From Escherichia phage VEcB, in the sequence record NC_052663.1: DNA of 64,000 nucleotides; one strand, 5' to 3'. A model generated the notes under the pieces. The model was given only the letters and a program-made list of their open reading frames with translations, made no database searches and had not been told where the DNA came from. This document shows positions 9,171 to 28,256 of this stretch, one piece after another (position 1 is the stretch's first letter; every line of letters begins with the position of its first letter). Position numbers and translations under genes: made by a program.

Positions 9171-9806
9171 ATGGGAATACCATTTGATTTAAAACTTGAT
9201 GGTTCTAACGATTTAATAATGGTGGATGGTGATTTAACACTAACCACAACTAAAAGTGAAATTGCAGCACAGACGCTTGGAATAACACTTAGAACTTTCC
9301 GTGGAGAATGGTTCCTCAATTCTAATTTTGGGGTTCCATATCTACAAGAGATTATTGGTGTTGCCAAGAAGAAAGAGATTGTTGATCGCATTTTCTTATC
9401 AACTATCGCAAGTAATGTTTATATAGATAATATTAATTCATACACGTCCTCTTATGATAGAGATGATAGGTATTACTCAATGAACGTTACTGTTACAGTT
9501 GGTGAACAAGTTGTTAGTGCGCTGTTCAGTACGCAGCCGTCTGAAGAATATATCTATCCAGAAGCTGGTGATGATAATGCAGCAATCACTTGTGAAGCAT
9601 TTGAAATTGTTGAATCTGCAAATAGACTCTATCGCTTTATTAACATTGTTGGTCTTCCTAGAGATACTTATTCTACTTGGTGGAATGAATGGTCTAACGA
9701 GGCATTGATTGAAAAATACCTTGTTAACGAAGCCAATAAAGGTCTTGCAACCAATTACAACTATGCTATAACAGCAACAATGGGAGCTACAAATAATAAT
9801 GGCTGA
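9171..9806 (+). CDS. putative baseplate wedge protein (gpW / gp25-like)
   Basis: 211 aa; N-terminal segment TLRTFRGEWFLNSNFGVPYLQEI resembles the gp25/GPW family motif as recalled; P2-like order V-W. Confidence 0.5.
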   Translation: MGIPFDLKLDGSNDLIMVDGDLTLTTTKSEIAAQTLGITLRTFRGEWFLNSNFGVPYLQEIIGVAKKKEIVDRIFLSTIASNVYIDNINSYTSSYDRDDRYYSMNVTVTVGEQVVSALFSTQPSEEYIYPEAGDDNAAITCEAFEIVESANRLYRFINIVGLPRDTYSTWWNEWSNEALIEKYLVNEANKGLATNYNYAITATMGATNNNG

Positions 9807-10272
9807 TTTAACTACAATCAAGGTGTCTGATCTACCTGTAACAACATCTGTTTCAGACACAGATTATTTTGTAACAGATCAATCAGGCATCACTAAGAAA
9901 ACATCATTACGTGTTCTTCTTGCGGGTGCTGGTGTTACACGAAATCGTCTTTCTGCAAGGGGTACTGTCACAAATACCCTAGCTTTAGATATTAGCACGG
10001 CAGAGTATTTCTCTGCCACTTTATCTAGTCCAACTTGCAGTATTTCATTTAGTAATGTTCCAGTTACAACTAACATTGTTCAAAACTTTACTCTATCTCT
10101 ACGTCAAGGTAGTGGAGCAAATAAAGTAACGTGGCCTCAATCTGTTAAATGGAGTTTTGGTCGCGCTCCTGTTTTGAGTTATAAACAGGGAGCTACAGAT
10201 ATTTTTGAATTTGTTAGTTATGATAATGGAGCTACCTGGATAGGTAGTTTAGTGATGGCAGGAGTGATTTAA
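9799..10272 (+). CDS. virion protein with fibre-type N-terminal anchor motif
   Basis: 157 aa; N-terminus (DLP..S..DYFVTDQ....K.T) resembles the N-terminus of the tailspike at 15325. Confidence 0.4.
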   Translation: MADLTTIKVSDLPVTTSVSDTDYFVTDQSGITKKTSLRVLLAGAGVTRNRLSARGTVTNTLALDISTAEYFSATLSSPTCSISFSNVPVTTNIVQNFTLSLRQGSGANKVTWPQSVKWSFGRAPVLSYKQGATDIFEFVSYDNGATWIGSLVMAGVI

Positions 10273-13148
10273 TGTCAAGAATTAAGCACAGAATTGACAA
10301 TGTTTTTCAACTGATCGATGGACATATTCAGTTCTTAGATCGTAATACAGGTTTAACTGTAGATCCTACAGTGCAACACTATGTATTAAACCCACAAAAC
10401 GTTCTAGCTAATAACAGACACTTTATAAACTGGACTGCTCAAGAAGGGCAACCAAACGGGGATGCTACAACAGAAGGTCAATCCGTGCTTATTCTTGGTT
10501 GCGCTTATGCATATCTAGCTTCCGGCGATACAAAGTATTTAGACTCTGCTAAAAAATATTGGCAAGCCTATATAGATTACTTCTTTGGTGGTCAACCTAT
10601 CCCAGATCCGCCAGCAAAGTATCGCCCTAACTGGATTATTAACGGTAAAGAACCACGTCTTGCACACTATCCTCTTACAGATGATGGCTACCCTACACAC
10701 GGAGGTTTTAAGGGTAGCTTAATGACGTGGACTAACGGTAGAACAGTTATTCCTCATGGTGCTCCACATTGGGGAGAATACCTTGACAAAGCATGGTTTG
10801 CTTTTAATGGTAATCTAGGATGGAACTCTGTAAACGCTACAGTATATGCTGTTAATGCAGATGGAACAACAGATTGGTCTAAGAATGGAGATCAATGGGA
10901 CGTTGATTGGATCATTGATCGTCTAGGACGTAAAGTTGATTGGGATGGAAATATCTTAGAAGAAGGTTTTCCAACATCTCAATACGGAACAGTTCAACTA
11001 AAAAATACTTCTGTAAACGGTACATATAAATTTAACTACGCGACTTGTAACCCTGTTGAACACGGTGGTTATTTAATGGAGCGTAACACTATGTGGCATA
11101 ACAGACCAGTTAACGTTCCGGTAGAAATGGGCTTTCAGGATAATGCGTCAGATGCCGAAACTTGGTGGTGTGATGCTAATTACCTGATGTACCAAATTAC
11201 AGGAGAAAGAAAATATTGGCTATGCTGGCAGTCTTCACTGTTAGTGTGTCAAGATTACTCAAACATTGATATGTTTGATAAATTTTTCCGTAAGTCTACA
11301 TATGCAACTATTCCGTTTACAGATGGCATCTCTTACGATTATTCATATCCATCTACAGCAATACCTAAATATTCAAGAGATACTTTAGGCTATATTGTTA
11401 TTAGACAAGATGTTGCTGCTCAAACAACATTAGAACAGCAAGCCATTTGGTTTAAAGTTGATCAGAACTCTAAGTTACGAGTCCAGTTTCAAGGTGTAGA
11501 TGACGCAGGACATGGTATTCTTTTCCGTCCAGAGTTGGAATTAAGTAAGACCAAAGATGAAAATAACACAGTAACTTACCGCTGTGGCTTACCACTAGGT
11601 ACAGCTAATATGACAAGCATGGATATTCCACTATCCAGCTTTATGAGAAGTACCCCTCCTAGTGGTGGAACATATATTATCGCAGATCCGCGAATTATTG
11701 TTGACTGGGGTGACAATACTGTGGTACAATATAAGTATGTAACAGGTATTGCTGGAACTAATAATGACCAGATTGTTACTGCATCAATGGATACGGATGG
11801 TGGTGTTACTGTTGGTTTTTGGTTAACTCCTACATCAAAAGCTAATGTTAAGTCTATTACATATAGAACATATGAAGATGACTTTAACATGACTATCACG
11901 GATGCTCAAGGTTGGAGATGGTGGGCTATGCTGCCTAAAACGCAAGGGGCATGGAGTACGAAGACTTTATCAGCCTCTGCTTTTAAGTTAAGTGCTTACC
12001 AGCCTAATCATCCAGAAACAGATCCTAAACCTTCAGCAATAAATCTTACTGCTGTAGATCAGGTAAATTTAGTTCTTGATACGGCTCCTGTCAATGGTTT
12101 AACAGGAACAATAGATTTCTATTGTATTAACGATGTACCTGAAAGATATTCGTCATCTTCTGGTGATGATTATACCATGTACTTCCGTATTACTGTACAG
12201 GCTTCAAGTCCTCATACTGCTAAGTTAGGTGATTGTACTATTATTGACTATAAGTTAAATAGTCTTAATTACACACCAGGAATAATTCCATTCTCTAATA
12301 TCAGTGACCCAAACACTGCATTATACGATGGATGGCGTGGTATTCCATACCCAGGATACCAGTATCCTTCCTTATACTGTTTCGCAGGTAGGGATATTGA
12401 TTGGACACGTTTAAACAACAGTATTGATTTCTTGTATGATGCTCAAATGTGGTTTTATAACACGTTTGATCCTGTGATGCCTGGGCCTATGGCACAAGCA
12501 TATGTGTGGGATCGTTGGGATGCAAGAAAATACGGTGAACCTAATACGTTTACAATGAAACACTGGAATGAAAAAGCGTGGGATGGTTATGAAGCTCGTG
12601 CATTCTACTGTGCTTGTCATGCTGTATACGAACTTGTACAAAGAGGAGAAACACCTCCTGAAAAACTAGTAACTGTTTGTAAAAATTGGATCAACTACCT
12701 TAAATGGTTCCAAGACAATAATGATGGAAGAACACCAACTATCTTTAATCCAGATGGTACAGTTCTTGCACCTATAGATGACTTTACTAGTCATATGTCT
12801 GCACTGTTTATGGCGGGTTGTTCAATCATGGGCTTGGCAGGTTATGATTCACAAATTCCAAACATTGGTATTGTAGCAGACAGATGTTTTGATCTGATTC
12901 AGCAAAACTATATTGTGCTTTCCCCTAACCATCCGATGAATGGTTCCTGGAGTGTTGCACCACGCCCAGATTCAGATAACGGAATGTTCTTTGGTTTCCA
13001 TGCTGGAGAACTATTACGTGGTTTTGGTTTATATGCCTTGTATCGTAAACTAAACCCTCAAAACGCTTTACCAATTTTGGATAATAGTAACATACCAACA
13101 CTAACTGTTCTAACTATGAATGATATTAGTGTTGATGTAACCAAATAA
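10272..13148 (+). CDS. large virion (baseplate/fibre-associated) protein
   Basis: 958 aa ORF; start overlaps the upstream stop (ATGTC/TAATG-type coupling); Trp/Tyr-rich. Confidence 0.4.
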   Translation: MSRIKHRIDNVFQLIDGHIQFLDRNTGLTVDPTVQHYVLNPQNVLANNRHFINWTAQEGQPNGDATTEGQSVLILGCAYAYLASGDTKYLDSAKKYWQAYIDYFFGGQPIPDPPAKYRPNWIINGKEPRLAHYPLTDDGYPTHGGFKGSLMTWTNGRTVIPHGAPHWGEYLDKAWFAFNGNLGWNSVNATVYAVNADGTTDWSKNGDQWDVDWIIDRLGRKVDWDGNILEEGFPTSQYGTVQLKNTSVNGTYKFNYATCNPVEHGGYLMERNTMWHNRPVNVPVEMGFQDNASDAETWWCDANYLMYQITGERKYWLCWQSSLLVCQDYSNIDMFDKFFRKSTYATIPFTDGISYDYSYPSTAIPKYSRDTLGYIVIRQDVAAQTTLEQQAIWFKVDQNSKLRVQFQGVDDAGHGILFRPELELSKTKDENNTVTYRCGLPLGTANMTSMDIPLSSFMRSTPPSGGTYIIADPRIIVDWGDNTVVQYKYVTGIAGTNNDQIVTASMDTDGGVTVGFWLTPTSKANVKSITYRTYEDDFNMTITDAQGWRWWAMLPKTQGAWSTKTLSASAFKLSAYQPNHPETDPKPSAINLTAVDQVNLVLDTAPVNGLTGTIDFYCINDVPERYSSSSGDDYTMYFRITVQASSPHTAKLGDCTIIDYKLNSLNYTPGIIPFSNISDPNTALYDGWRGIPYPGYQYPSLYCFAGRDIDWTRLNNSIDFLYDAQMWFYNTFDPVMPGPMAQAYVWDRWDARKYGEPNTFTMKHWNEKAWDGYEARAFYCACHAVYELVQRGETPPEKLVTVCKNWINYLKWFQDNNDGRTPTIFNPDGTVLAPIDDFTSHMSALFMAGCSIMGLAGYDSQIPNIGIVADRCFDLIQQNYIVLSPNHPMNGSWSVAPRPDSDNGMFFGFHAGELLRGFGLYALYRKLNPQNALPILDNSNIPTLTVLTMNDISVDVTK

Positions 13149-13156
13149 GGAAAATA

Positions 13157-15316
13157 ATGAAACAGGCTATTTTTACTGTAACTCGAAATACGAGAGTAAA
13201 TGCCAGTTCATTCAGCTATAAGACCGTCGATGGAACGGCGGTCGCTGGTAGAGATTATGTAGCTAAACAGGGAACAGTAACGTTCCCTTCTGATGCAGAT
13301 TCTGCTACTGTGGTGGTTGATGTATATGAACGTCCGGCAAACTCTTTAGATCTTTATTTTACTCTTGAGATTACTAGCATAAGTCAAAATAACATGATGA
13401 TCAATGAAGAAATTCGTTGTGTTATTACGACTAATCAATCGAATACAACCCCGCTAACTTGGCCTGTTGTGAAGTCTAGAATGTTTGATCCTAAGTTTTG
13501 GACAATAGATTCTCAATCAACAGAAAGTTGTTCTATTATCTCTAATGGTGATTCTTTCACGGCAAGAATGGTTAATAGGACAGTGGCTGGTCTTGCTGGG
13601 ATTATTTGGTCAACTTACGATAAATATGATCACAAAGGATTAGGCTACCAAGAACATTCTGATTTAAGTAAAGAAAAACTTTGGTTTAAAATGGAACTTA
13701 GTCAAGGTGTTCCTGGGTTAAAAGAAGAAAAATTAATGCCATCCTTAACAGTGACACTGAAGGATGAAACAGTTCATTATGTATCTCTAAACTTTTATGC
13801 AGAAGAAGTTTCAGAGGACGGTAAAACAGCAATAATCAAATTAGATTTCTCAAATTTAAAATCTGGGCCAGAAAATGATATTGTTGTTGACACTACACAG
13901 ATAGATAACATGTTCTTCTCCTTGATCTCCGCAAGGTATCAAGAAATTGAAGATGTTATACCTGTAGACAATATGGATCTTTCCTTTAAGTTTACCATAC
14001 TAGAGCCTGATACTGGTTACAGTATGATGAATATGGGTAATTTAAATGTTCCGGCGCACACCATAAGAATGTGTACATCTTATGATGATATGTATAACCT
14101 AACCCCAGAGCGAGTTATTTCTAACACCTATAGATTAGGTTATAGAGATATGATTAACCATTATAATGGTATGTCACACTATTATCAATTTAGTTGGGAT
14201 GCTGGATCTAATAAATGGGCTTTGAATAGAACAGAATATTTAAACCCAGCAACAGAAGCCTGGTTTGATAATTTCCACGCTAATGCAAAAGCTATGGGCT
14301 ACACAGTAATGAACTCCTTAAGTTTTGAACTTATGAGTACAGTGTGTCCTGTAGAATGGGTACAACATACTTGGAATGATGATCTGGCTGCTACAGGTTA
14401 TGAGCCACCAAGTTATGTTTTATCTCCTTCAATTGATGAAGGGATGAATTATTTACAAGGTGTAATAAATAAGATAGCTTCTATATCCGCTACCAATGAT
14501 CTTCCTGTTATTATTCAGGTTGGTGAACCGTGGTGGTGGTATAACACAGCTACCAATCTCCCGTGTATTTATGATTATGCAACCAAAGTTGCATTTAATA
14601 ATGAAACTGGATTATATGCACAAGATGTTGGTACAGTTAAGAATTATAAAACTGGTACACCATATGATGAATATTATGCATTCCTATCTAAAACATTAGG
14701 ACTGCGTGTTGCTAAATTTGCAACAGATACTAGATTAGCATATCCTGGAGCAAAAGTTACATTGTTACCATTTGTGCCATCCATTTTGGGTAATGGTATG
14801 ATGGAGTTTGTTAACTTCCCTAAAGATTATTATATCCCAGAAAACTTTGACTTTTATTGTTCAGAATGTTATGATTGGTTGTTGGAAGGTAAGATGGAAA
14901 GATCTTTCGACGCTATCACAATACCTAATGAGCAACTAGGTTTTAGTTACAATAAGATACATTATCTTGCAGGGTTTGTTCCAGATGCAACTCTAGCACC
15001 ATTATATGGCTTTGATCCTGAATCAAACTATAGAACATATTTGTGGAAAATGATTATAGGTAATATTGTATTGAATGATCAGAAGTTTGTTGGTTTATAT
15101 CAATACATATGGGCTTATCCACAAATAATGCATGATTCAATAACTGTTCTTAATTCAAAATCCCAAGTTTTTTATATGGGTAATGTGCCTTTGAATTGCT
15201 ATTTGCAAGATATCACTCTTAAACAGGTAAATGTTACGATTGCTACTATAAGCGGAATTACATTAGCCACTAAATCTGGAGAAGATTTAGTAACAACACA
15301 AAAATTTTATATATAG
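13157..15316 (+). CDS. virion protein with N-terminal Calx-beta-like domain
   Basis: 719 aa; N-terminal VDGTAVAGRDYVAKQGTVTFPSDADSATVVVDVYER matches the Calx-beta pattern. Confidence 0.45.
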   Translation: MKQAIFTVTRNTRVNASSFSYKTVDGTAVAGRDYVAKQGTVTFPSDADSATVVVDVYERPANSLDLYFTLEITSISQNNMMINEEIRCVITTNQSNTTPLTWPVVKSRMFDPKFWTIDSQSTESCSIISNGDSFTARMVNRTVAGLAGIIWSTYDKYDHKGLGYQEHSDLSKEKLWFKMELSQGVPGLKEEKLMPSLTVTLKDETVHYVSLNFYAEEVSEDGKTAIIKLDFSNLKSGPENDIVVDTTQIDNMFFSLISARYQEIEDVIPVDNMDLSFKFTILEPDTGYSMMNMGNLNVPAHTIRMCTSYDDMYNLTPERVISNTYRLGYRDMINHYNGMSHYYQFSWDAGSNKWALNRTEYLNPATEAWFDNFHANAKAMGYTVMNSLSFELMSTVCPVEWVQHTWNDDLAATGYEPPSYVLSPSIDEGMNYLQGVINKIASISATNDLPVIIQVGEPWWWYNTATNLPCIYDYATKVAFNNETGLYAQDVGTVKNYKTGTPYDEYYAFLSKTLGLRVAKFATDTRLAYPGAKVTLLPFVPSILGNGMMEFVNFPKDYYIPENFDFYCSECYDWLLEGKMERSFDAITIPNEQLGFSYNKIHYLAGFVPDATLAPLYGFDPESNYRTYLWKMIIGNIVLNDQKFVGLYQYIWAYPQIMHDSITVLNSKSQVFYMGNVPLNCYLQDITLKQVNVTIATISGITLATKSGEDLVTTQKFYI

Positions 15317-15324
15317 GAGTAAAA

Positions 15325-17574
15325 ATGTCAACTACAATTACTAATTTACCCGAAACATCAAAAGTTAATGGTTCTGATTACCTGGTTTTAGACCAACCTG
15401 ATAAGACTGTTAAAAGCACAGTTTCCAACTTTCTTACTGACACTGGGGTGGTTTTAGCCACCCAGCTAAAAGATGTTTCTGGAGCTACCAAGTATCCAGA
15501 ACTTCAGATTGCACGCTGGCGAGACGAGGGAGATATCAGAGGGTGGGGCACGGAAACGAACGGTGATGTTACCGAAGCAATCATTAAGGCGGTAGCGGCG
15601 ACAAGCGGCACTATCATTGTGCCTCCAGGCAATTATACGGCCACGCCAACCTTGGAGCAGGTTCCTTCTGTACTGAAATTGCTTTCACAAGCAGAGTTTC
15701 GAGGATCATTAGATATCAATCTCCCTGCGGGAACAGTTAACCTTTCTGAAAAAACGGTAATACGTTCGCAAAATGTCCATAACCTGTCTATCTCTGGGGT
15801 TAAATACTCGACATCCCTAACCGGTCTGGTAAGTGTTAGTGGCAGTCCAAAGGCATATCTGGTAACTATCTCTCTGGCAGATGCATCGAATGTTTCTGTC
15901 GGCGACGTGGTGATGATTCGCCACGACATCTCAGGAACTGGAGGGTATCACATTCACTGTGGTGGATGGGTTGTGGATGCGGTATCTGGTAATAATGTCA
16001 CCGTAAAAAATACCTGCCACCTTTCTGCATTCCCGACATCAACGATTACTAGTGGGTCGGTAGTCATTCTTAAAAGCATTCTGAAATACACTGGCTGTGA
16101 TGGTATTGTGGCAGCAGGCTCGGGATGCATTAAGACGATAAATGGTGTCGCTATTGTCGGTGATTATGATCTGGCAACAGGCTCTGGAACTATCGGGGCA
16201 CACGGCTTCTCCCTTACCACTCCAGACATAACCGTTGCTAGTCCAGACCCATCCAATGAAGTTTTTGATGCATCAGGCTGCATAGCTATTGGCCCTGATT
16301 TGGCGATTGTTGGGTTCGGTGAGCAGGGGTTTGTAGCGTCAGAGAGATCTGGTGTGGTTTCAAACTTTATATCTTCATGCTCTAACCGCAAGCGCGGTGT
16401 ATATTCTGAAGGCGCTCATATACGCGGTAAATTTATGCTTTGCTCAGGGAATGGTGAGGATGGGATTATTTCAGACATTGGTGGCGCAATTCAGGCTAAC
16501 GGTTCAGTTTGCTCAGGAAATGGACTTAACGGTTTTTGGTCATTCAACCACAGTCTCTTGAGTGCTCCTGGCGGGATTTCGTGTGGTAACTTCACGAATG
16601 GTGCGGAAGCGCGCGGACCAGGTGCATTAAATCTGCAAAATGGGAAGAGCTATTTAAACAGGCTAATTGGTGCAACCGCGTCAAATGGTGGGACGGTTAT
16701 TTTTACTGGCTCAACATCAACGCAGAATGGCACGGATGGACTGGTTGCAGTTTATGATGGTTTGATCTCTGCCGCCAATGCCAGCTCAGTGGGCAACGGA
16801 CGCTATGGGGTTGCCGTAACTCACGCAAAAATTGTGCTTACAGGCTCAGGAAGCGTAAGCGGAAATTCAACTGTAGATTTCATCGATCGCGGCGAGGGTA
16901 CTATAATTAAGCCGGATGGAACGATGCTGCCAAGAAAGGCTGCCCCGCAAAGCATCCTTTCTATTCGTAACGCCAATCTTTCCGGTGCTGATGTTACGGC
17001 ATCATCAATTGGTGATATTACCGTCTCGCAAAGAAACACATCCTCGGGTGCATTAACCCCCCTGTATGTATTCAAATCTGACGGAACCCAGCTTCCAGTC
17101 AATGACGCCACGCAGAACCTTGGCAGGGCAAGCAATCGCTACAATGTTGGTTTCTTCGCTGGCGGAACACAGTCAACTTCAGATGCCACACTTAAAGACC
17201 CTATCCGAGAGTTCAATCAGGCCGAACTCAATGCAGCAATGCGCATCTCGAAAATGTTTGGATTCTGGACGTGGCTTGATGATGACAATAAGCGTTTGCA
17301 TGCAGGGACTACGGTTCAAGCAGTGTTAGCTGTTCTGGAAGAGGAAGGTCTAGACTGGCGTAGCTATGGATTTATCTGTTTTGATGAGTGGGATGATGAA
17401 TATACCCCGGTAACCATTGAGGTAGATGGCGAAGTCGTTGAAACAGGGGAAATGAAATTAGTGCGTGAGGCTGGTTCTGTCTGGCAACTGCGCGATCAGG
17501 AATTTGACCGTTTCGTTATGCGTGGACTTTCTGAAAGGCTGAGTATTATAGAAAGTAAGCTGGATTTACTGTAA
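15325..17574 (+). CDS. tailspike with C-terminal intramolecular chaperone-like domain
   Basis: 749 aa; conserved AT-rich N-terminal anchor, then a GC-rich Gly/Ser-rich beta-helix-like body, then a C-terminal S-D..K / FGFWTWLDDD region resembling peptidase S74-type autoproteolytic chaperone domains (recalled pattern). Confidence 0.5.
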   Translation: MSTTITNLPETSKVNGSDYLVLDQPDKTVKSTVSNFLTDTGVVLATQLKDVSGATKYPELQIARWRDEGDIRGWGTETNGDVTEAIIKAVAATSGTIIVPPGNYTATPTLEQVPSVLKLLSQAEFRGSLDINLPAGTVNLSEKTVIRSQNVHNLSISGVKYSTSLTGLVSVSGSPKAYLVTISLADASNVSVGDVVMIRHDISGTGGYHIHCGGWVVDAVSGNNVTVKNTCHLSAFPTSTITSGSVVILKSILKYTGCDGIVAAGSGCIKTINGVAIVGDYDLATGSGTIGAHGFSLTTPDITVASPDPSNEVFDASGCIAIGPDLAIVGFGEQGFVASERSGVVSNFISSCSNRKRGVYSEGAHIRGKFMLCSGNGEDGIISDIGGAIQANGSVCSGNGLNGFWSFNHSLLSAPGGISCGNFTNGAEARGPGALNLQNGKSYLNRLIGATASNGGTVIFTGSTSTQNGTDGLVAVYDGLISAANASSVGNGRYGVAVTHAKIVLTGSGSVSGNSTVDFIDRGEGTIIKPDGTMLPRKAAPQSILSIRNANLSGADVTASSIGDITVSQRNTSSGALTPLYVFKSDGTQLPVNDATQNLGRASNRYNVGFFAGGTQSTSDATLKDPIREFNQAELNAAMRISKMFGFWTWLDDDNKRLHAGTTVQAVLAVLEEEGLDWRSYGFICFDEWDDEYTPVTIEVDGEVVETGEMKLVREAGSVWQLRDQEFDRFVMRGLSERLSIIESKLDLL

Positions 17575-17639
17575 TTAAGAGCCGCTATCTCCTACTATGA
17601 TGGCGGCAACCTTAAAATATTTAAGTGGGGAGCCACCTA

Positions 17640-19374: not shown

Positions 19375-20004
19375 ATGGCAGTGAGTGTTGACCATGTGAC
19401 AACGTGGGATAGTATCAATGAAGATGTTAAAGACCTACTGATTGAAGATTTTAAATCTTCTCCGAACATTGTCAAACTACTCTATATCATTTCTAGCGAA
19501 AAACAAAAGATAGATCAGGCAATGATCTATCTTGCCAAACACCGCTTAATCTCTACTGCAACTGGTAAGTATTTAGATCTTATTGGTGAAGAGATGGGGA
19601 TGGAAAGAAATGGTGCTACAGATGAAGAGTATCGTACAATATTAAAAATCAGGGCTTATCGTGTTGCGTCTTCTGGTACGCGAGATGATATCATTGATAT
19701 GTTCGCTCGTTTTACAGGAACAGAAAAAGAAACGATTAATACATACGTTGGATTAAATAAAACATTCGACGTATTCTTTTATAATTTGTGTCTACAATCC
19801 GATCAGGCAGTAGCACAGTTACTTAACGTTTTCCCGATCCTAAGTAGTTATCGCTTAGGTGCGAAAGCGGGTGCAGCCTTTGGTTTCACTTCCTATTATG
19901 CCACAACTCCACCTCATGGTATAGGTGGTTTAGGTTCTCTTTACACAGAGGCTGAAGGAGATGATACAGGGCGAATGACTATGCTGATAGCTCAAATAGA
20001 ATAA
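19375..20004 (+). CDS. putative baseplate protein gpI-like
   Basis: 209 aa immediately downstream of the J-like gene. Confidence 0.4.
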   Translation: MAVSVDHVTTWDSINEDVKDLLIEDFKSSPNIVKLLYIISSEKQKIDQAMIYLAKHRLISTATGKYLDLIGEEMGMERNGATDEEYRTILKIRAYRVASSGTRDDIIDMFARFTGTEKETINTYVGLNKTFDVFFYNLCLQSDQAVAQLLNVFPILSSYRLGAKAGAAFGFTSYYATTPPHGIGGLGSLYTEAEGDDTGRMTMLIAQIE

Positions 20005-20017: not shown

Positions 20018-21001
20018 ATGGCAAAGCCACAATACTACCCTGACTGGGCGACACAAACAGTAACCCTCCCAGGAACGGGAAACACAAACAAGATTAGACC
20101 AAAAGAAACCATCCGTAATGTTGGTATGGACTTTGGTCAGATTATGACTTGTGAAGAAATGAACTGGATCTTAAACAATATTGGGTCTTGGATTCGCTAT
20201 ATGCAAGATGAATTCTTCCCAACATTGCCTACTACATATCTTCCTATAGTCGGTACTAAAATTACAATGGCAGGTGATGCTACAGGTGAAGTTACATGGA
20301 ATGGTAATGCTGCTGTAACATTATCTATTCAAGTCGTAGATAACAGCCATAATCACTTATCAGCTAACATTACAGACGCAACATCAAACCAAGTTGTAGG
20401 GAACGTCCTTGTTAAGCGTGATAATGGTGGTGCTATCTATGCAGGTGATATTTACACTTGTGGTACAGGTGCTACAGATCCTGCAACATTATTCTTTAGA
20501 AACTACAACGGACAAACAGTAGGTAATATGTCCTCTGAACCAGGTGCAGGTGGTCAACTCTATATTTATAGAATGAATCCATCAACTGGGGGAACATCTT
20601 GTGCAGTCCGTTTATATGATGCAGGTTATGTTTTAATAGACAATCCTCGTTCTAATTCTGGTCAAGATACTGGTAATGGTAATGCTCTTGTAAGATTAGA
20701 CTATCTTAACTCCAGACTAAACTCATTGCAAAGCACACTGCAAAATAATATTAACAACGTTAATAGTAACTTGCAAGGCCAAATTAATAGCATTAACAAT
20801 AGAGTTTCTTCTGTTGTGTCTGCTATCCGTCTTGGAACACGTATCCAAGCTGGTGTGTCTGAGTCTCGTTTCTATGCTGGTCACGTGATCACAGGTTGGG
20901 GTTTTGGTGACAAGAAAGAACTTCGTGGTGCTTGGTATTGGTCAGCCCCGCTACAATATTATATTAATGGTAGCTGGATAACAGTAACCAACGTTTCGTA
21001 A
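20018..21001 (+). CDS. tail fibre protein (gpH-like)
   Basis: 327 aa; Gly/Asn/Thr-rich, coiled segment, followed by a tail fibre assembly chaperone gene. Confidence 0.5.
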   Translation: MAKPQYYPDWATQTVTLPGTGNTNKIRPKETIRNVGMDFGQIMTCEEMNWILNNIGSWIRYMQDEFFPTLPTTYLPIVGTKITMAGDATGEVTWNGNAAVTLSIQVVDNSHNHLSANITDATSNQVVGNVLVKRDNGGAIYAGDIYTCGTGATDPATLFFRNYNGQTVGNMSSEPGAGGQLYIYRMNPSTGGTSCAVRLYDAGYVLIDNPRSNSGQDTGNGNALVRLDYLNSRLNSLQSTLQNNINNVNSNLQGQINSINNRVSSVVSAIRLGTRIQAGVSESRFYAGHVITGWGFGDKKELRGAWYWSAPLQYYINGSWITVTNVS

Positions 21002-21010: not shown

Positions 21011-21562
21011 ATGAAAAAAGATGTTATTTTTACAGGTTTTGAATTGTATGAACCAGAATTAACAGAAGAAAATATTCTTTATCTTTCTGTTGGTGGTGGT
21101 TTTTTGCAAGACAAAGATGGTAACGACTGGTATCAGCTTCAAAAAACTTTGATGGTAGAATATCCCGACGCTTATTTTATTACCTTAGATGATAATAATA
21201 TTGTACGTGGTGCTACTAAAGATGTTACTACCTATTTCCCTGCCGGACAATCTATTTTAGTTACATATAATGTACCAGATAAAATAGAAGATGAAAGTAA
21301 CATTGGCTCTTGGCAATATGTTGAAGGTAAGTTTGTTCCTCACAATAATCTTGCTATTGAAGATGCTACTCTTAAGTTAGAAAAGGAGCTAACTTGGGCT
21401 ACGAATCAAGTGTCTGCGATTCAAGATTTAGAGGAATTACAAGGTTTATCTGAAGAACAAAAAGATTGGTTAGGAAAAGTTAAACTCTATCGTGCAACAT
21501 TAATTCAAATTAACGTTGAAGATGCACCTAATATAACTTGGCCTACAAGACCTAAGAAATAG
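21011..21562 (+). CDS. tail fibre assembly chaperone (Tfa / gpG-like)
   Basis: 183 aa; C-terminal motif WLGKVKLYRATLIQINVEDAPNITWPTRP matches the conserved C-terminus of tail fibre assembly proteins. Confidence 0.6.
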   Translation: MKKDVIFTGFELYEPELTEENILYLSVGGGFLQDKDGNDWYQLQKTLMVEYPDAYFITLDDNNIVRGATKDVTTYFPAGQSILVTYNVPDKIEDESNIGSWQYVEGKFVPHNNLAIEDATLKLEKELTWATNQVSAIQDLEELQGLSEEQKDWLGKVKLYRATLIQINVEDAPNITWPTRPKK

Positions 21563-21571
21563 GGGCAATGT

Positions 21572-21913
21572 ATGGAGCTAACAGAAGTATGGGATATCGC
21601 TAAAGAGGCGATTATCCCTCTTATTGGCGTAATCTGGGTGGTCTTCAAACAGAAGATAGATGATATGGCAAGTGATTTGGATAAAATGGAAGACAAATAC
21701 CGCGAACTAGAAAAGAAGTTGGTGTTTGTTGAATCCACTTATGCTACCAAAGCAGAACTTGCTCAAATGCTTAACCAGATCAACTCTACATTAATGGCAA
21801 ATAATACTGCCTTAGAACAGAAGATTGAAAAAATAATGGATTTAAAAAATGCTCCTGTTCAATTAATGCTAGAGGAGATTACAAAGCGCACACAAAGTAA
21901 GGACAAAAATTAA
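21572..21913 (+). CDS. hypothetical membrane-anchored coiled-coil protein
   Basis: 113 aa; one N-terminal hydrophobic helix followed by a charged coiled-coil. Confidence 0.3.
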   Translation: MELTEVWDIAKEAIIPLIGVIWVVFKQKIDDMASDLDKMEDKYRELEKKLVFVESTYATKAELAQMLNQINSTLMANNTALEQKIEKIMDLKNAPVQLMLEEITKRTQSKDKN

Positions 21914-24327
21914 TGGCGAATTTTCCAACATATCCTGCTACGACACTAGAACAAGGTGTTGATCTGGTTATATTCTCGTCTAACCAGATGCATGATGTTA
22001 TTAATGGAGATGCTACAGCAACTGTAGAAACCGAAACAGGTTTAATACCTACACTGCGTAAAGCACTTGTTGATAACTTCTTCTTTAAGAGTCCTGTTGC
22101 TTGGTCAGCAGGATCAACTGAAACTGTATTTAACCAGTTACGTTATTTTGAAAACGGTATCTTGAGTGGGTACTATTATGCCCCATCTGCCACTACTGCG
22201 AACCCTGTACCTATGCAGGGCACACCTGTAGGAGACAGTAACTGGACTCTGTACGCTCTTAAAACTGAACAGTTAGCTTCAGATGTGTATCCTTGGTATT
22301 TTAAAGGTGCTACAGGATATGAAACAGAAATCAGTCCTCCTTATATCTTTGATAATGCTATTGTCACCATTAACGGTGTAATTCAGATTCAAGGTGAAGC
22401 ATTTACTATCAGAGATAGTAAAATTATTCTGGCAGAACCATTAGGTTTAGATCCGTCTACTGGTCTACCTAACAAATTGTTTGCTTTTATTGGTAAAACA
22501 ACAGCCTCTACTTCTTACGTAGAGAAAAACCTTTTGTCATCTACCACTGGTGCAGCAATGGTTGGTCTTCCATCTGGAGGCAACCTGTTACAAGCTCAAT
22601 ACTTTGTAACGCCTGAGCAGTTTGGTGCAATTGGTGATGGAGTTACCGATGATACTCAAGCAATTTTAAAAACTATTACTTTCGCTAACACGAATAACAT
22701 TCAAGTACGTGCAGATAAGAATTATAGATTCACAAGCTCAATTGCTATGTCTGGTATTCGTTGGTATGGTGGTACATTCACTGGTAACGGTGGAACAATG
22801 ATTTCTACTGTGTCCTGTTGGATGGAAAACGTTCGCTTTGAAAAATGTTATGTTAAGATGTTAGGTGGTGATTGCCGATTCTATCGTAATATCTTCTCCA
22901 ACGCAACATCTACAGCAGCATTCTTAATGCAAGCAATGACAAGTGAAGGTACGTTGGACTTCAGTTACAACGAAATGTATGGTTGTAAATATGCGATCCT
23001 GCAACAAGGTACTGGAGAAGTAATGACCTATGGGCGTTACTCTAACAACTATATTCACGATATCAAAGGTGATGCTATTGAACTTAACGTAGTTCAAAAA
23101 CACTACACTGAAGGTTTGATTATCGAGAATAACCACATTGCTAACGTAGATGCTTCTGGACAAGGGGCAAACTGGGGTATTGGTATTGGTGTAGCAGGTA
23201 GTGGCCCATATGGTGTTGATGTTCCTGATTCACAATATGTACGTAATTTCAGTATCGTTGGGAATAGGGTTTACAATTGCCGTCAATGTTTACACGTTGA
23301 AATGGGTAAAAACTTCACAATACGTGATAATGAAGTTTATCCTAACACAGCAGTTTCAACAGGTACAGGTTTAACTACTTGTGGTGTTGCATTATACGGA
23401 TGCCAAGATTTTGAAGTTGATGGTTTAACTGGTTATCTGCTCAATGATCCTTCTGTTTCAACACGTATGGTCTTTATTGACTGGGGTGTTAACAGTGGAA
23501 GATATGCGGGGCCACCAATTAACTTTACAATTAAGAATTTGGATATTCCAGAATCTTCAATTGAGATTGCAACATCTGGATCAGATGCCTGGGAAAACTC
23601 TACAATTGTTAGTAATATCAATTGTAATGTTTTTAAATGGCGTGGGCTACCATCTAGCTCTACCTTTAATAATATTCGTTGCCGTAGTATTGACTTTATT
23701 GGTCAACACGGAAGCGGAGAAGGAAGTGGTGGCGGTTTCTATACTCGCAGCCAATTCACGTATATGAAGTGGGTAGGATGTACAGCACTTAGCGGAGATG
23801 AAACAACAGTTTCTTTTGCTAAAATCTACACTGATCGTTGCGATCAGGTTGGAAATAACTTTGGTGTTCCAACTGCTGTTGATGGTACAGGTCATCGTGG
23901 GCCAGTTTTAACTACTATTTCTGAACAATATTTTACAACTTATGATGAATTCCCAGGTGGGCGTGAATTCCCTACTGGAACAGTTATTCATTGTGCAAGC
24001 GGTAAAAAACATGTTGTTACAGTAGGTGGTGCTTTCTTTAGTGCCAACGAGAAAATAAAAGCAACTGTTACAGGTCAAACCTATCTACAGTCTAATGCTT
24101 TAAACTGGGCTAGTAATGGCTACGCTAAAGCAGCAGGTACTAAAATTGTTATTCCAGGTGCAGGTGCAAATGGCGGCGATCTTGTGACAACTATAGCACG
24201 TGCTACATATGTGACAAATAGTTTGTACACAATAGATATTGCAGATCCAATTGTAACACCTACAGCAGAGAATACACAAATCAAAGCTCTGAACCCTGTT
24301 ACTTTTGTTACTGTCAATAATGCTTAA
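21913..24327 (+). CDS. tailspike / polysaccharide depolymerase (pectate-lyase-fold beta-helix)
   Basis: 804 aa; contains QFGAIGDGVTDDTQAI, a hallmark of pectate-lyase-superfamily tailspikes; start coupled to upstream stop (TAATG). Confidence 0.65.
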   Translation: MANFPTYPATTLEQGVDLVIFSSNQMHDVINGDATATVETETGLIPTLRKALVDNFFFKSPVAWSAGSTETVFNQLRYFENGILSGYYYAPSATTANPVPMQGTPVGDSNWTLYALKTEQLASDVYPWYFKGATGYETEISPPYIFDNAIVTINGVIQIQGEAFTIRDSKIILAEPLGLDPSTGLPNKLFAFIGKTTASTSYVEKNLLSSTTGAAMVGLPSGGNLLQAQYFVTPEQFGAIGDGVTDDTQAILKTITFANTNNIQVRADKNYRFTSSIAMSGIRWYGGTFTGNGGTMISTVSCWMENVRFEKCYVKMLGGDCRFYRNIFSNATSTAAFLMQAMTSEGTLDFSYNEMYGCKYAILQQGTGEVMTYGRYSNNYIHDIKGDAIELNVVQKHYTEGLIIENNHIANVDASGQGANWGIGIGVAGSGPYGVDVPDSQYVRNFSIVGNRVYNCRQCLHVEMGKNFTIRDNEVYPNTAVSTGTGLTTCGVALYGCQDFEVDGLTGYLLNDPSVSTRMVFIDWGVNSGRYAGPPINFTIKNLDIPESSIEIATSGSDAWENSTIVSNINCNVFKWRGLPSSSTFNNIRCRSIDFIGQHGSGEGSGGGFYTRSQFTYMKWVGCTALSGDETTVSFAKIYTDRCDQVGNNFGVPTAVDGTGHRGPVLTTISEQYFTTYDEFPGGREFPTGTVIHCASGKKHVVTVGGAFFSANEKIKATVTGQTYLQSNALNWASNGYAKAAGTKIVIPGAGANGGDLVTTIARATYVTNSLYTIDIADPIVTPTAENTQIKALNPVTFVTVNNA

Positions 24328-24332
24328 TTAAA

Positions 24333-24355: not shown

Positions 24356-24368
24356 AAGGAGTAGTAAA

Positions 24369-26330
24369 GTGATTTTAACACGTCCAAATAGTGCCATTGC
24401 AGACATGGTAGAGTCTCGCTATAGAAAGCGTAGAAGTTTTGCAAGTGGTTTTACCTTAAGAGATGCTCGTGAAGCATTGCTCTTTGAAACTGACGGTAAC
24501 TACTATCAGTGGAAAGGTTCTCTACCTAAAGTTGTACCTGCTAACTCTACTCCTACATCTACTGGAGGGATTTCAGATACAGCTTGGAAAAATGTGGGTA
24601 ATGCAGATGACATTGCTCAAATAGAATCAGAATTAGATGCTATTGAAGCTGAAATTGAAGATCTTAGAGAATCCATTCCAGAAGCTGGTAAATCAGCTTA
24701 CCAGATTGCCGTAGACAATGGTTTCCAAGGTGCTGAGACAGACTGGTTGGCTTCTTTAAAAGGTGATCCAGGTGCTCCATTAAAGCTGCTAGGGACGCTA
24801 TCTAATACCAACCAATTACCTACAACCGGAAACAATGCAGGAGATGCATGGATTGTAGGAGAAAATATGTATGCTTGGGATGGTACTGCTTGGAGAAAAG
24901 TAAACTCACAGGGGCCAGAAGGTAAATCAGCTTATCAAGTTTGGCTTGCAGCAGGAAACCAAGGTACAGAACTAGATTATCTTGCTTCAATTAAAGGTGA
25001 TAAAGGGGAACCTGGCCCAGAGGGGCCACAAGGTGTACCAGGTAACAATGCTAATGGTTTTGATTACCAAGGTGCAGCTAATTCCGTTTCAGATCTTCCT
25101 TCTGCATCTCCTGGAAACACATCTCAAGCATGGAGTATTGGTACATATCTATACGTGTCAAACGGTGTAGAATGGATCAATATGGGCGCTATAGTGGGGC
25201 CAAAAGGAGATAAAGGCGACAAAGGAGATAAGGGTAACACTGGTGATTCAGCTTATCAAGTCTGGTTAAACGCTGGTAACGTTGGTACTATTGACGAATA
25301 TATTGCCTCTCTGAAAGGAGAAAAAGGTGATAAGGGAGACAAGGGTGATCAAGGTGAGCAGGGTATACAAGGCTTGACGGGGCCAACTGGTGCAGGGTTG
25401 ACCATTATTGATATTCTGACTGACACTTCTGAACTACCACAAACTGGAGAAGATGGTGATGGTTATCTGATCAATAATGAACTTTGGGTTTGGTTGCAAG
25501 GAGCCACACAGTGGACAAATGTTGGTCGTTTAGCTGGTACTCCAATCACTGCAAAAGGACACGTTGCGTCTGCAAGTGCACTTCCTCCTACATCCAATTA
25601 CGGTGATGCTTATCTAACGGAAGACACAGGTCATCTTTACATTTACACCTATGATGAACAAACTCAAACTGCTGAATATGTAGATATGGGTAGTTTGAAA
25701 GGTGATAAGGGTGAGAAAGGTGACGCTGGTACTAACGGTACGGATGGTGCAACTTGGATTGTTAAAACAACAGATCCAATCTCTAGTGATGGTAAACAAG
25801 GTGATTATGCCTTTAATATCTCCACTGGCGAGGTGTTCTTAAAAACATCTGCAACTGTCTGGACTTCTCAAGGTACACTACCTAGCATCACAGATGCACC
25901 TAGTGACGGTAAGATCTATGCTCGTAAAGATGGAGCATGGGAAGAACTAACTAGTTCTGTAGATGGTCAAGATATAGTTCCAACAAAAGTAACAGCTAAT
26001 TTTATAGAGGTTACAGCATACACCAACAACTCTGTTATAGGTGACTGGACACCTCCAGGAACACATAACATGAATGTGTTGAATCTTACTGGTAACGCTA
26101 CTATAAAAGCATGGCCTGGTGTCGAAGATAGCACAAAACCTAAACCATTCTCTGCAATAGTTTATCTTATCCAAGATGCCACTGGAGGTCGTACTGTTAC
26201 TTTAGATCCATCTTACAAAGTAATTGGTTCTAGTGATATTAATACAGATCCTAACGGAGTAACAATACTACAACTAACATATTGTGGTGTTGGCAATTAC
26301 GTGGATGCTATTGTTGCTAAACGCACATAA
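24369..26330 (+). CDS. tail fibre protein with collagen-like GXY repeats
   Basis: 653 aa; GTG start after AAAGGAG; several Gly-X-Y runs (GDKGEPGPEGPQGVPG; GDKGDKGDKGNTGD; GEKGDKGDKGDQGEQGIQGLTGPTG) separated by a recurring approx. 30 aa motif (SAYQ.W...GN.GT..DY.AS.KG). Confidence 0.65.
   Translation: MILTRPNSAIADMVESRYRKRRSFASGFTLRDAREALLFETDGNYYQWKGSLPKVVPANSTPTSTGGISDTAWKNVGNADDIAQIESELDAIEAEIEDLRESIPEAGKSAYQIAVDNGFQGAETDWLASLKGDPGAPLKLLGTLSNTNQLPTTGNNAGDAWIVGENMYAWDGTAWRKVNSQGPEGKSAYQVWLAAGNQGTELDYLASIKGDKGEPGPEGPQGVPGNNANGFDYQGAANSVSDLPSASPGNTSQAWSIGTYLYVSNGVEWINMGAIVGPKGDKGDKGDKGNTGDSAYQVWLNAGNVGTIDEYIASLKGEKGDKGDKGDQGEQGIQGLTGPTGAGLTIIDILTDTSELPQTGEDGDGYLINNELWVWLQGATQWTNVGRLAGTPITAKGHVASASALPPTSNYGDAYLTEDTGHLYIYTYDEQTQTAEYVDMGSLKGDKGEKGDAGTNGTDGATWIVKTTDPISSDGKQGDYAFNISTGEVFLKTSATVWTSQGTLPSITDAPSDGKIYARKDGAWEELTSSVDGQDIVPTKVTANFIEVTAYTNNSVIGDWTPPGTHNMNVLNLTGNATIKAWPGVEDSTKPKPFSAIVYLIQDATGGRTVTLDPSYKVIGSSDINTDPNGVTILQLTYCGVGNYVDAIVAKRT
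24990..25750 (+). repeat. collagen-like GXY coding repeats interleaved with fibre repeat motif
   Basis: Repeated GAYAARGGNGAYAARGG-type codon periodicity visible in DNA (e.g. 25204..25245, 25318..25400, 25700..25745). Confidence 0.55.
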
Positions 26331-26333
26331 TCA

Positions 26334-26358: not shown

Positions 26359-26369
26359 AAGGAGATTAA

Positions 26370-28256
26370 ATGTATCCTATTCCTTTATTTATGTCAACAA
26401 CATCAGCTTCAGTAGTAACAGCTACATCTATAACCACTTCCTCTATTGGTATTGCAATAGTTGGTAGTAAAAAGCAACTGACATACACAGTTTCACCGGA
26501 AGATGGTGCGTTATTTGATATAGCTTTTTCATCTTCAGATAATACCAAAATGGTTATAGATAATAGTGGTATGATGGAGTTTGTTGCCGAAGGTGGTTTT
26601 GATGCAATAATGACAGCTAAAAATAATTTAGGTGCTGTCTTAACTGATCAATCTGGTGGTTATGCTTCAGAATTAAGCGTGTACACTGAAAGTCTATCCG
26701 CTATGGATGTAGGCACTACTCAACAGTTGGTTGCTACAATCAGTCCAGAAGGTGCTAAAGACCTTCCAGATATGGTAATTACATACACCACAACAGATCC
26801 AGAAGTAGCTACTGTAAGCCCTACAGGATTAATAACTGCTCTTAAAGATGGCAATTGCCGTATAGGTTGTACTGCAACGTATCAAGGAACAGTTGTGGCC
26901 TCTGATAGTTCTTATTTAGGTGTTAATGCTATTCCTGTTATTTCTAATGTAACAGCCGTGGCAAACAGTTATGGAGACGTTCGTGTTGCTTGGGATGTAA
27001 CTGATCCACTAGACGGTGATACTTATACTGTAGAAGTATTAGATTTAAGTGATAATAGTGTTCAGTGGACTACAACAACCACGAATACTTACGCTTACTT
27101 TGATATCTCTGACTCTATTCCTCTTTATGGGTTTGCTCCAACATACCTTAAAATTAGCGTTAAGAGCACCAAAGCAGCAGCCGTTATCTTTAATAACTCA
27201 ATAGCTACAGATGATTCGTTCATTAAAGAAGTTATTGTCTTTGCTGGACAAGATAACGTAAATGCACACTTTACAGAATTATCTGGTGCAAATAAAGCAG
27301 TAATGAGTAGCACAACAACCCGTAATGCATATGCTACGCAACGTGGTTTAGCAAATGCTGAAGTTCTTCCGTTAAATACAGCTTCTGGATCATCAGCAGC
27401 AGATAAATATGCTGACGATAAAGCTGGAACAGGTACACCAGACAACTACTGGTATGATCTGGATAACACAGCAGATGGGCCATGCTTAACTAACTTTATC
27501 ACTAAAGTCACACCTTATGCAAGTAAGGTTAAAGCAATTATTTGGGGACAAGGTGAAAATGATGCTGTATCAGCATCTTCGACTGTTGCAGGTAGGTACA
27601 GTAACACTACACGTTACCATGATGCTACGATAGCTATCTTTGATAAGATGCGTACAATAGTTCCTGCTTCTCAAGCAAAAATTGTTTGGCAGATCCTAGG
27701 ACGTTCTTATTTATATGGTGTAGAAGTTAATGGTGTGGATTGGCAGAAGTACAGAAATGTACAAAGAACCATCTCTACAGCACGTGATGATGTTATCATT
27801 GGTTCTTGGGTAGATGGTGCTGAACGTTACAGTGGTTATGTTTATGAAGAAGGTATTGATGGTCGTATCCATTATATTTCTTCTGTATATCAAACAGCAG
27901 CTACAAAACTTGCTAAATCAGCAGCAGACGGTACAGATTTAACATCAACACCACCTGTTTGGGTTGATATGTCTGTTCCAACAGGAGGAGCCGCTGTAAG
28001 ACAAGCTAACCAAGATGCAATTATTTCTTGGGAACCAGCAGGATATACCAAACATTACTTCCGAAATGTAAACGTCCTCACAGCAGCAATTCTTACAGAA
28101 CAAACTCTTGATACTAACACTTACACATTTACTTATGCAGATCAGGTTGAACAATACGGGTTTGCAGCAGGTACAGCAGTGTTTGATGTTGCACACTATG
28201 ATGCTGATAATGACGTGTTATCACCTCTTGTCAGATTTACAGTCAATGTTACATAA
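26370..28256 (+). CDS. virion-associated protein with Big_2-like Ig domains and SGNH/SASA-type esterase domain
   Basis: 628 aa; two Big_2-like segments (e.g. VATISPEGAKDLPDMVITYTTTDPEVATVSPTGLITALKDGNCRIGCTA); esterase-like blocks VIVFAGQDNVNAHF and AIIWGQGENDA resembling sialate/carbohydrate O-acetylesterases. Confidence 0.5.
   Translation: MYPIPLFMSTTSASVVTATSITTSSIGIAIVGSKKQLTYTVSPEDGALFDIAFSSSDNTKMVIDNSGMMEFVAEGGFDAIMTAKNNLGAVLTDQSGGYASELSVYTESLSAMDVGTTQQLVATISPEGAKDLPDMVITYTTTDPEVATVSPTGLITALKDGNCRIGCTATYQGTVVASDSSYLGVNAIPVISNVTAVANSYGDVRVAWDVTDPLDGDTYTVEVLDLSDNSVQWTTTTTNTYAYFDISDSIPLYGFAPTYLKISVKSTKAAAVIFNNSIATDDSFIKEVIVFAGQDNVNAHFTELSGANKAVMSSTTTRNAYATQRGLANAEVLPLNTASGSSAADKYADDKAGTGTPDNYWYDLDNTADGPCLTNFITKVTPYASKVKAIIWGQGENDAVSASSTVAGRYSNTTRYHDATIAIFDKMRTIVPASQAKIVWQILGRSYLYGVEVNGVDWQKYRNVQRTISTARDDVIIGSWVDGAERYSGYVYEEGIDGRIHYISSVYQTAATKLAKSAADGTDLTSTPPVWVDMSVPTGGAAVRQANQDAIISWEPAGYTKHYFRNVNVLTAAILTEQTLDTNTYTFTYADQVEQYGFAAGTAVFDVAHYDADNDVLSPLVRFTVNVT

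Follow-up and report, generated by a model that had tools for sequence, protein, structure and literature searches.

A phi92-like receptor-recognition gene cluster with a different tailspike in its exchangeable slot

The multivalent adsorption apparatus of phage phi92 was reportedly described by Schwarzer et al. in 2012 (J Virol 86:10384), and phi92-like phages are a textbook case of many glycan-directed spikes carried at once; they are of practical interest both in phage therapy and for the enzymes that they supply. In the literature, gp141, gp142, gp143, gp150 and gp151 are treated as tail fibres or spikes. Cryo-electron microscopy (cryo-EM) of phi92, published in 2026, has revealed a trimeric central spike resembling that of P2, assigned gp139 as the sheath initiator and gp145/gp146 as the wedge, identified fibre III as gp147 and located the attachment point of fibres I and III on gp145 (PMC13450770). 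According to published work, the endosialidase is a feature of phi92 itself, and within the genus the gp143 slot differs or stands empty. On K-12, phi92-like phages require the genes wecB and nfrB for synthesis of the NGR surface glycan, and the outer-core glucose of the lipopolysaccharide (LPS) has been proposed as their shared terminal receptor. Here we compare with these systems a gene cluster at positions 9799-28256 of a 64,000-nucleotide stretch of phage DNA, called the window throughout.

The cluster is made of 13 uninterrupted plus-strand open reading frames (ORFs) with almost no intergenic space, running from the start codon of the gp140 ortholog at 9799 to the end of the last fibre gene, whose stop lies at 28256. 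When this segment was compared by megablast with phage records, 136 records were matched, 50 of them with coverage of at least 80%; the top match was Justusliebigvirus VEcB (98.8% nucleotide identity over 100% of the query), and phi92 matched with 98.0% identity over 87% of the query. Translation of the ORFs between 313 and 28256 and comparison with the phi92 proteins revealed orthologs of gp128 to gp153 in conserved order and with 96-100% amino acid identity, the exceptions being gp148 (81%) and the ORF at the gp143 position. Because these orthologs are collinear at such identities, the window is, on its gene content, a phi92-like phage (Justusliebigvirus), and 9799-28256 is its gp140-gp153 cluster. 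In other words, the cluster is the already published multivalent ("Swiss army knife") adsorption apparatus of phi92 with a different tailspike swapped in. Comparisons were made with phi92, PaulScherrer, VEcB, P2 and N4, among others, and domains were sought in Pfam, NCBIfam, PHROG and the PDB.

An initial annotation of this DNA had read the same segment, with the same boundaries, as a multivalent adsorption apparatus, which matches the published description of phi92. The proteins that it had listed, namely a Calx-beta protein, a GC-rich tailspike, a gpH-like fibre with its Tfa chaperone, a pectate-lyase-fold depolymerase and a collagen-like fibre, were likewise recovered, as detailed below; its two further proposals, an esterase and a broad or switchable host range, held in part and are dealt with in their place.

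The cluster very probably encodes the receptor-recognition proteins of a phi92-like myophage, in which a baseplate core of the P2 type bears several fibres and spikes that are expressed together and directed at glycans, one of them in an exchangeable slot. The core would be composed of the central spike gp138, the sheath initiator gp139, the wedge proteins gp145 and gp146 and the short fibre gp147 with its chaperone gp148. On this core, gp142 would bind the NGR surface glycan by means of a domain in common with the N4 sheath proteins, gp150 would cleave colanic acid, the collagen-like fibre gp151 would dock by a TSP1/gp66-type N-terminal domain, the gp152/153 protein would putatively contribute Ig-like and SASA-like domains, and the exchangeable slot would carry a strain-specific depolymerase spike. 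Once the spikes had cleared or bound the outer glycans, gp147 could reach the LPS core, its presumed terminal receptor, and its rearrangement with the wedge would trigger contraction. Within this scheme, the orthologous relationships, the domain content and the boundaries and distribution of the cassette were derived here from sequence, whereas the positions of gp139, gp145, gp146 and gp147, the enzymology of gp150 and the NGR dependence come from the work of others on near-identical proteins. Coordinates are given in Table 1.

Table 1. Features of the gp140-gp153 cluster and its borders, in window coordinates
Feature	Position	Strand	Remarks
gp138 ortholog, central baseplate spike (P2 V-like)	8430..9167	+	Context gene just upstream of the cluster
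gp139 ortholog, sheath initiator, W/gp25-like	9171..9806	+	99.5% identity to phi92; PHROG 120 'baseplate wedge subunit', E 8.6e-22
gp140 ortholog, small fibre-like protein, 157 aa	9799..10272	+	100% identity to phi92; PHROG 9017 'tail fiber protein'
gp141 ortholog, 958-aa conserved tail protein	10272..13148	+	Largest in the block; 99.9% identity to phi92
gp142 ortholog, NGR surface glycan binder (predicted)	13157..15316	+	Calx-beta, NCTSP_N, TIM-barrel_NCTSP
Variable-slot tailspike at the phi92 gp143 position	15325..17574	+	Anchor, predicted beta-helix, S74 chaperone; 749 aa
Exchanged cassette: receptor-binding domain, chaperone, downstream spacer	15549..17644	+	Foreign base composition
gp144 ortholog, small predicted membrane protein, non-fibre	17640..17885	+	PHROG 1322 'membrane protein'
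gp145 ortholog, J-like baseplate wedge	17885..19372	+	Pfam Baseplate_J; 99.6% identity to phi92
gp146 ortholog, second wedge protein (P2 I position)	19375..20004	+	100% identity; PHROG 4056 'baseplate protein'
gp147 ortholog, short tail fibre (cryo-EM fibre III), P2 H / Mu S-like	20018..21001	+	98.5% identity to phi92
gp148 ortholog, tail fibre assembly chaperone (P2 G / Tfa-like)	21011..21562	+	Pfam Caudo_TAP
gp149 ortholog, small non-fibre protein	21572..21913	+	99% identity; sole PHROG match 15210
gp150 ortholog, colanic-acid-degrading tailspike (colanidase)	21913..24327	+	99.4% identity to phi92
gp151 ortholog, collagen-like fibre, C-terminal knob	24369..26330	+	97.4% identity to phi92
Intact gp152+gp153 gene, 628 aa	26370..28256	+	Ig-like domains, SASA-family (SGNH-fold) domain, C-terminal beta-sandwich
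Terminator-like bidirectional hairpin closing the fibre block	28260..28283		Stem of 10-11 pairs, T runs on both strands

The tailspike at the gp143 position differs from its phi92 counterpart in most of its length: phi92 has a 918-residue K1/K92 endosialidase in this slot, whereas the protein of the window is a shorter spike with a predicted beta-helix. The two can be aligned only over residues 1-123 (66% identity) and in the chaperone (34%), and no endosialidase domain was found in the slot spike by a Pfam scan. A monomer model was built with AlphaFold 2 (AF2) from 35 homologs (mean pLDDT 84.5), in which a right-handed beta-helix covers residues ~95-590, preceded by the N-terminal anchor (residues 1 to ~75) and followed by the chaperone (~620-749). 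The best fold neighbours of the model are phage depolymerases of capsule and O-antigen, at low TM-scores and none of them close. The C-terminal part was matched by intramolecular-chaperone structures (3gw6, 3gud and 4uw8), by Peptidase_S74 (PF13884) at residues 619-676 and by the chaperone of T5 pb1 (E 4e-27). Its segment STS619-DATLK624 aligns with 'TADARLK' of T5 pb1 in 4uw8, in the region of the autocleavage dyad; the crystallised pb1 construct presumably has Ala at the Ser position. The Ser619/Lys624 dyad is present in the slot spike, Ser619 being kept in at least 90% of the 35 homologs, and the chaperone is predicted to be self-cleaving.

The limits of the exchange could be set precisely. 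The breakpoints lie at 15548/17645 in the comparison with phi92 and at 15474/17640 in that with PaulScherrer, so that the exchanged unit, of ~2.1 kb, consists of the spike gene after its first ~50-75 codons plus the short spacer that precedes gp144. The GC content is 47.6% for the cassette and 47.2% for the spike gene, compared to 37.9% for the window, and the GC3 of the spike gene is 0.41 compared to 0.21-0.27 in the neighbouring genes. The N-terminal anchor retained by the slot spike is specific to the genus: about 40 protein clusters have in common with the slot spike only its first ~54 residues, at 93-96% identity, and the bodies found behind this anchor include endosialidases and Beta_helix, Pectate_lyase_3 and GDSL-type domains. 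The remainder of the slot spike is 62-92% identical to spikes that bear P22 head-binding or TSP1/gp66 N-terminal anchors. At the nucleotide level, the cassette is 99.3-99.6% identical in VEcB, two 'alia' records and Phapecoctavirus 536P1 (OZ035773, OZ035770, OZ035728), with 99.3% for 536P1, and 86.5% identical in Sashavirus 536P12; it was also found at 86-89% in prophages of 18 complete Escherichia coli genomes, two of which are labelled O6:H16. In strain FORC_031 it corresponds to a prophage tail fibre gene adjoining the lysis cassette. The cassette was acquired by horizontal transfer. A second, smaller allelic difference within the block is that of gp148, which is 81% identical to the phi92 protein and 99.5% identical to that of PaulScherrer, with the adjoining gp147 at 98-99% to both.

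For phi92 gp150 a crystal structure is available, and residues 180-804 of the gp150 ortholog are matched by the PDB entries 6e0v and 6e0w ('Bacteriophage Phi92 gp150'); homology to WcaM is also present. The pectate-lyase fold called by the initial annotation we take to follow from what is known of gp150. Colanidase activity of phi92 gp150 is reported in the literature. In gp151, Pfam detected Tail_spike_N (E 3.6e-21), Collagen and, weakly, Fibritin_C, and the collagen-like nature is apparent also in the DNA, as Gly-X-Y repeats at 25203-25357 and 25698-25723.

The gp142 ortholog combines a Calx-beta domain (residues 4-80, E 1.7e-9) with a larger part made of NCTSP_N and TIM-barrel_NCTSP (E 8.5e-82). 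Against the PDB, it matched N4 Gp64 over residues 358-608 (E 2.6e-28) and the N4 sheath protein over residues 272-344 (E 3.3e-11); the N4 'non-contractile tail sheath' protein matched by gp142 is gp65. The motif GMSHY was found at residue 338, and a preprint of 2026 describes GMSHY as an NGR-specific feature, with phi92 Gp142 as an example.

The two genes upstream of gp142 were absent from the list of the initial annotation, as were the small non-fibre proteins gp144 and gp149. In gp140, residues 9-46 are 37-39% identical to residues 5-42 of the slot spike and of phi92 gp143, and the protein is listed among the fibre-like candidates examined with AF3 (AlphaFold 3) in the cryo-EM paper (PMC13450770); it is a probable adaptor. 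For gp141, the single sequence gave no match in Pfam, NCBIfam or the PDB. A profile of 22 sequences gave a weak hint of GH76 alone, which was not taken as an assignment. Full-length homologs with 44-57% identity were found in phages or prophages of Enterobacter, Pseudomonas, Stenotrophomonas, Gluconobacter and marine bacteria, and their alignment has ~130 invariant columns, with an enzyme-like pattern of conservation. The genomic contexts of these homologs are those of myo-, sipho- and podophages. In Enterobacter prophages (L007; L008, 9001-11823), which have lambda-like head genes and a Phage_Tail_Tip protein, the homolog lies between a large ORF with a faint match to a tail-tube family and downstream tail genes, and in a SU10-like podophage contig (Logan SRR10874396; L006, 6691-11364) the gp141-like gene follows the adaptor gene.

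In this podophage contig, the homolog of gp141 is a protein of 1557 residues (P0306), in which residues 13-955 are gp141-like and residues 963-1538 correspond to residues 103-677 of gp142 with 51% identity. As both parts are joined there in a single polypeptide, gp141 and gp142 may act as one unit, and as the fusion comes without the Calx-beta domain, this domain may be the docking piece of gp142. Probably, gp141 is the scaffold or arm that carries gp142, which would dock on it.

The last gene of the cluster is intact in the window and broken in phi92, which is without ~211 bp (window 26960-27177; phi92 27666-27672), a loss that explains the separate gp152 and gp153 ORFs of that phage. Most relatives have a longer form of 939 residues, with 938 additional bp inserted precisely at the stop codon of the window gene (28253-28259; PaulScherrer 21371-22308). 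The added C-terminal domain of 311 residues shows moderate allelic variation and, in the PaulScherrer version, had no match in Pfam. In the window protein, a single Big_2 match was detected by Pfam at residues 112-170, and Ig-like beta domains are modelled at residues ~20-280. The protein matches PHROG 15324. Two of its regions match N4 gp65 (E 2e-25), and these are other than the regions matched by gp142.

The initial annotation had called this protein a Big_2/SGNH esterase. The Big_2 part of the claim agrees with the Pfam match, and the SGNH part holds only through transitive homology to SASA, a family that represents the sialate-O-acetylesterase branch within the SGNH fold. The direct score against SASA (PF03629) was below threshold (E 0.005; 16.9 bits vs. 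a cutoff of 24.8), and in the AF2 model of the 628-residue protein the pLDDT of the central domain was 30-70; as the model is poor there, the domain was assigned by the transitive Pfam evidence. For this, the central domain (residues 278-540) was searched against 1.84 billion representative proteins, which yielded 76 homologs, and 16 of the 28 remote homologs scanned matched SASA (best E 1e-12). The catalytic part of the claim is another matter: the family consensus is GQSN ... GGS ... WxQGExD ... DxxH, whereas the window protein has GQDN, so that the nucleophile Ser is replaced by Asp. GQDN is likewise found in every Justusliebigvirus copy, a group with 42-46% identity has GGDN, most remote homologs have GQSN, and N4 gp65 has GESQ, in which the Ser is kept. 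It is doubtful that the protein acts as a canonical serine esterase; a role in binding is at least as likely.

On part of this evidence, the product of 26370-28256 could be viewed as an Ig-like protein that decorates the tail or the capsid, peripheral to adsorption, instead of a baseplate fibre. In PHROG, its N-terminal Big_2 region was matched by families called 'major tail protein' and 'structural protein with Ig domain', the phi92 annotation mentions a lambda V-like fold, phi92 infects in spite of the disrupted gene, and the nucleophile Ser of the SASA motif is missing. On the other hand, the gene closes the fibre operon, two regions of the protein are common to the receptor-binding N4 sheath protein gp65, and the variable C-terminal domain added in most relatives is typical of receptor binders. 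A peripheral decoration protein is a possibility that we hold as the less favoured of the two, and a contribution of gp152/153 to the adsorption apparatus is preferred.

A more specific arrangement can be put forward, tentatively, for three of these proteins: gp141, gp142 and gp152/153 might make up a recognition unit resembling the N4 sheath, seated on the baseplate of a myovirus, in which gp141 would be the proximal arm of fibre I or II, gp142 would be docked by its Calx-beta domain and the Ser-less SASA-like domain would act as a lectin for NGR/NfrA. The main clue to this arrangement is the podophage protein that joins gp141-like and gp142-like parts.

What the slot spike recognises can be approached from the distribution of its cassette. 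The '536' in the names 536P1 and 536P12 is taken here as isolation on strain 536, which is O6:K15. Phage 536_P1 has been described for therapeutic use against strain 536, which has a K15 capsule and in which resistance to the phage arose by LPS mutations or by K15 overproduction, and K15 could not be demonstrated as its receptor. From the presence of the cassette in 536P1, in 536P12 and in prophages that include those of O6:H16 strains, together with this pattern of resistance, we infer the O6 O-antigen as the target of the spike. A target in the capsule, for instance K15, is an alternative that we consider rather unlikely. It would fit with the fact that spikes with S74 chaperones include capsule depolymerases such as endosialidases and that the host of both 536 phages is encapsulated, and a K-antigen target was suggested in a tailspike survey of 2023, which included the VEcB spike, since related prophage spikes were found in O6, O11 and O153 strains. 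However, the relatives in O11 and O153 strains are just 62-66% identical and could differ in specificity, whereas the nearest prophage copies include those of O6:H16 strains, and in strain 536 resistance to 536_P1 came about by LPS mutations as well as by K15 overproduction, with K15 not demonstrated as a receptor. In addition, several homologs of the slot spike carry P22-type head-binding anchors. P22-like tailspikes classically target the O-antigen.

It could also be proposed that each of seven or eight proteins of the cluster is an independent receptor binder with its own attachment site, the host range being the union of their specificities. The C-terminal or central modules are indeed all different (a TIM barrel, beta-helices, a collagen-like fibre and a SASA-like domain), and members of the genus are reported to lyse a broad range of hosts. 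Nevertheless, only three fibre sets were seen per wedge, and fibre II joins the base of fibre I and not the baseplate (PMC13450770). The conservation of gp141 across Enterobacteriaceae, Pseudomonas, Gluconobacter and marine hosts is unlike that of strain-specific binders. Moreover, gp141 occurs fused to a gp142-like part, and gp140 has its anchor motif in common with the slot spike. Together, these observations suggest a branched, hierarchical assembly with adaptors. Fully independent binders are rather unlikely, and the look of gp140 and gp141 is more that of adaptors, of scaffolds or of enzyme modules that are conserved.

The preferred reading, that of a P2-type core with co-expressed fibres and spikes, has to be weighed against several points that count against it or its parts. 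The three fibre sets seen in the cryo-EM of phi92 leave gp140, gp150 and gp151 without a place, fibre II is unassigned, the placement of gp143 was inferential, and the search for fibre II and for the arm of fibre I left gp141 and gp142 unconsidered (PMC13450770). As three fibre sets are resolved and one of them is unassigned, not every protein listed is a proven independent receptor binder. In the window, the proteins are known from their genes, and data on virion components come from relatives; in the proteomics of rV5, several fibre orthologs were detected. The gp152/153 gene would be dispensable at least in the laboratory, given that phi92 itself has it in broken form. The evidence for O6 is indirect, and the 2023 survey suggested a capsule target for the VEcB spike. 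Finally, narrow plaque host ranges have been reported for some Justusliebigviruses with the same fibre set, meaning that many fibres alone do not guarantee a productive broad host range.

With regard to the host range, which the initial annotation had supposed to be broad or switchable, the first term agrees with the very broad lysis host range documented for phi92-like phages. As for the second, a repeat scan of the block revealed no long inverted repeats flanking the fibre genes, the longest arms being of 32 nt with 78% complementarity, and no direct repeats suitable for switching, and no recombinase or reverse transcriptase domain turned up in the ORFs scanned across the block and the DNA immediately flanking it. 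With no invertible segment, recombinase or reverse transcriptase in the block, and with fibres of the phi92 type described in the literature as co-expressed, active switching within a population by an invertible fibre segment (Mu G/P1 C type) or a diversity-generating retroelement has practically no probability, and a switchable host range is effectively refuted for the block. The variation is that of one slot exchanged as a cassette over evolutionary time.

Some details concern the borders and the remaining genes of the cluster. The gp138 ortholog is 99.2% identical to the phi92 protein, and Pfam detected in it the N-terminal and beta-helical trimerisation domains of the spike family. The gp144 ortholog is 96-99% identical to phi92 gp144 and to bas60_0029 of PaulScherrer; its ATG at 17640 is the likelier start, although the mechanical ORF opens at a GTG at 17625. 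As regards the wedge, the cryo-EM paper is inconsistent in its stoichiometry, which is given in the text as one gp145 and two gp146 conformers and in a figure legend as gp145-i, gp145-o and gp146 (PMC13450770). A scan for promoters and terminators gave no enrichment over shuffled sequences, and the only noteworthy hairpins were those that follow gp151 and the last gene; beyond the latter, the genes lie on the minus strand.

Outside the cluster, the VEcB record is collinear with the window, with 98.9% identity over positions 1-32957. The window encodes a family A DNA polymerase of 859 codons on the minus strand (32104-34683), and in phi92 and VEcB this gene bears an in-frame insertion of 245 codons (735 bp) within the polymerase domain, absent from the window, with the junction near 32955; in this the window is distinct from VEcB as an isolate. 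The insertion resembles an intein or another mobile element of that kind. A stretch of 519 bp (31555-32073) is present in the window and in VEcB, where phi92 has 23 bp instead; it holds most of an ORF of 198 residues (31480-32076, minus strand) that had no match in Pfam or NCBIfam.

No new principle emerges from the window, which belongs to a genus member with a known alternative allele in a hot-swappable slot. Its added value is modest and lies in the precise boundaries of the cassette, in a probable O6 specificity common to four phage lineages, in the intact state of a gene found broken in phi92, the type phage, and in a fusion protein that hints at how fibres so far unassigned are assembled. 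Residual interest attaches to the placement of gp141, gp142, gp150, gp151 and gp152/153 in the particle and to the SASA-like domain with its Ser-to-Asp replacement.

Compared with the known systems, the core follows P2, whose operon order V-W-J-I-H-G has its equivalents in gp138, gp139, gp145, gp146, gp147 and gp148. For the last two, homology to P2 was detected by phmmer (gp147 vs. H, E 1.5e-6; gp148 vs. G, E 1.9e-12), whereas pairwise comparison by phmmer with the V, W, J and I proteins of P2 gave no significant match, and for these four the equivalence is based on family profiles and the cryo-EM paper. As the initial annotation had proposed for 9799-17885, the adjacency of W and J is broken by an insertion of five genes (gp140-gp144; 8.1 kb) between the W-like gp139 and the J-like gp145, a conclusion in line with the P2 gene order and the cryo-EM assignments. 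Downstream of the G equivalent, four further fibre-cluster genes are present here compared to P2. The slot is reminiscent of TSP1-4 of the Ackermannviridae phage CBA120 and of gp63.1/gp66 of G7C, in which receptor-binding domains are likewise swapped behind conserved anchors; their docking domain PF18668 is also present in gp151 and in many slot alleles. However, the carrier proteins differ: no XD-type adaptor domain was detected by Pfam in the block, and attachment here would be to the P2-like wedge. The likeness to N4, whose sheath heterodimer gp64/gp65 (PDB 9lc0, 9yf4) serves in NGR/NfrA recognition, is seen in gp142, which has the NCTSP_N piece of gp65, a TIM barrel of the gp64 type and the GMSHY motif, and in the gp152/153 protein with its two gp65-like regions, and N4 depends on the NGR synthesis genes as phi92-like phages do. 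In N4, these modules form a sheath around the tail of a podovirus, whereas here they are divided over two proteins on the baseplate of a contractile tail.

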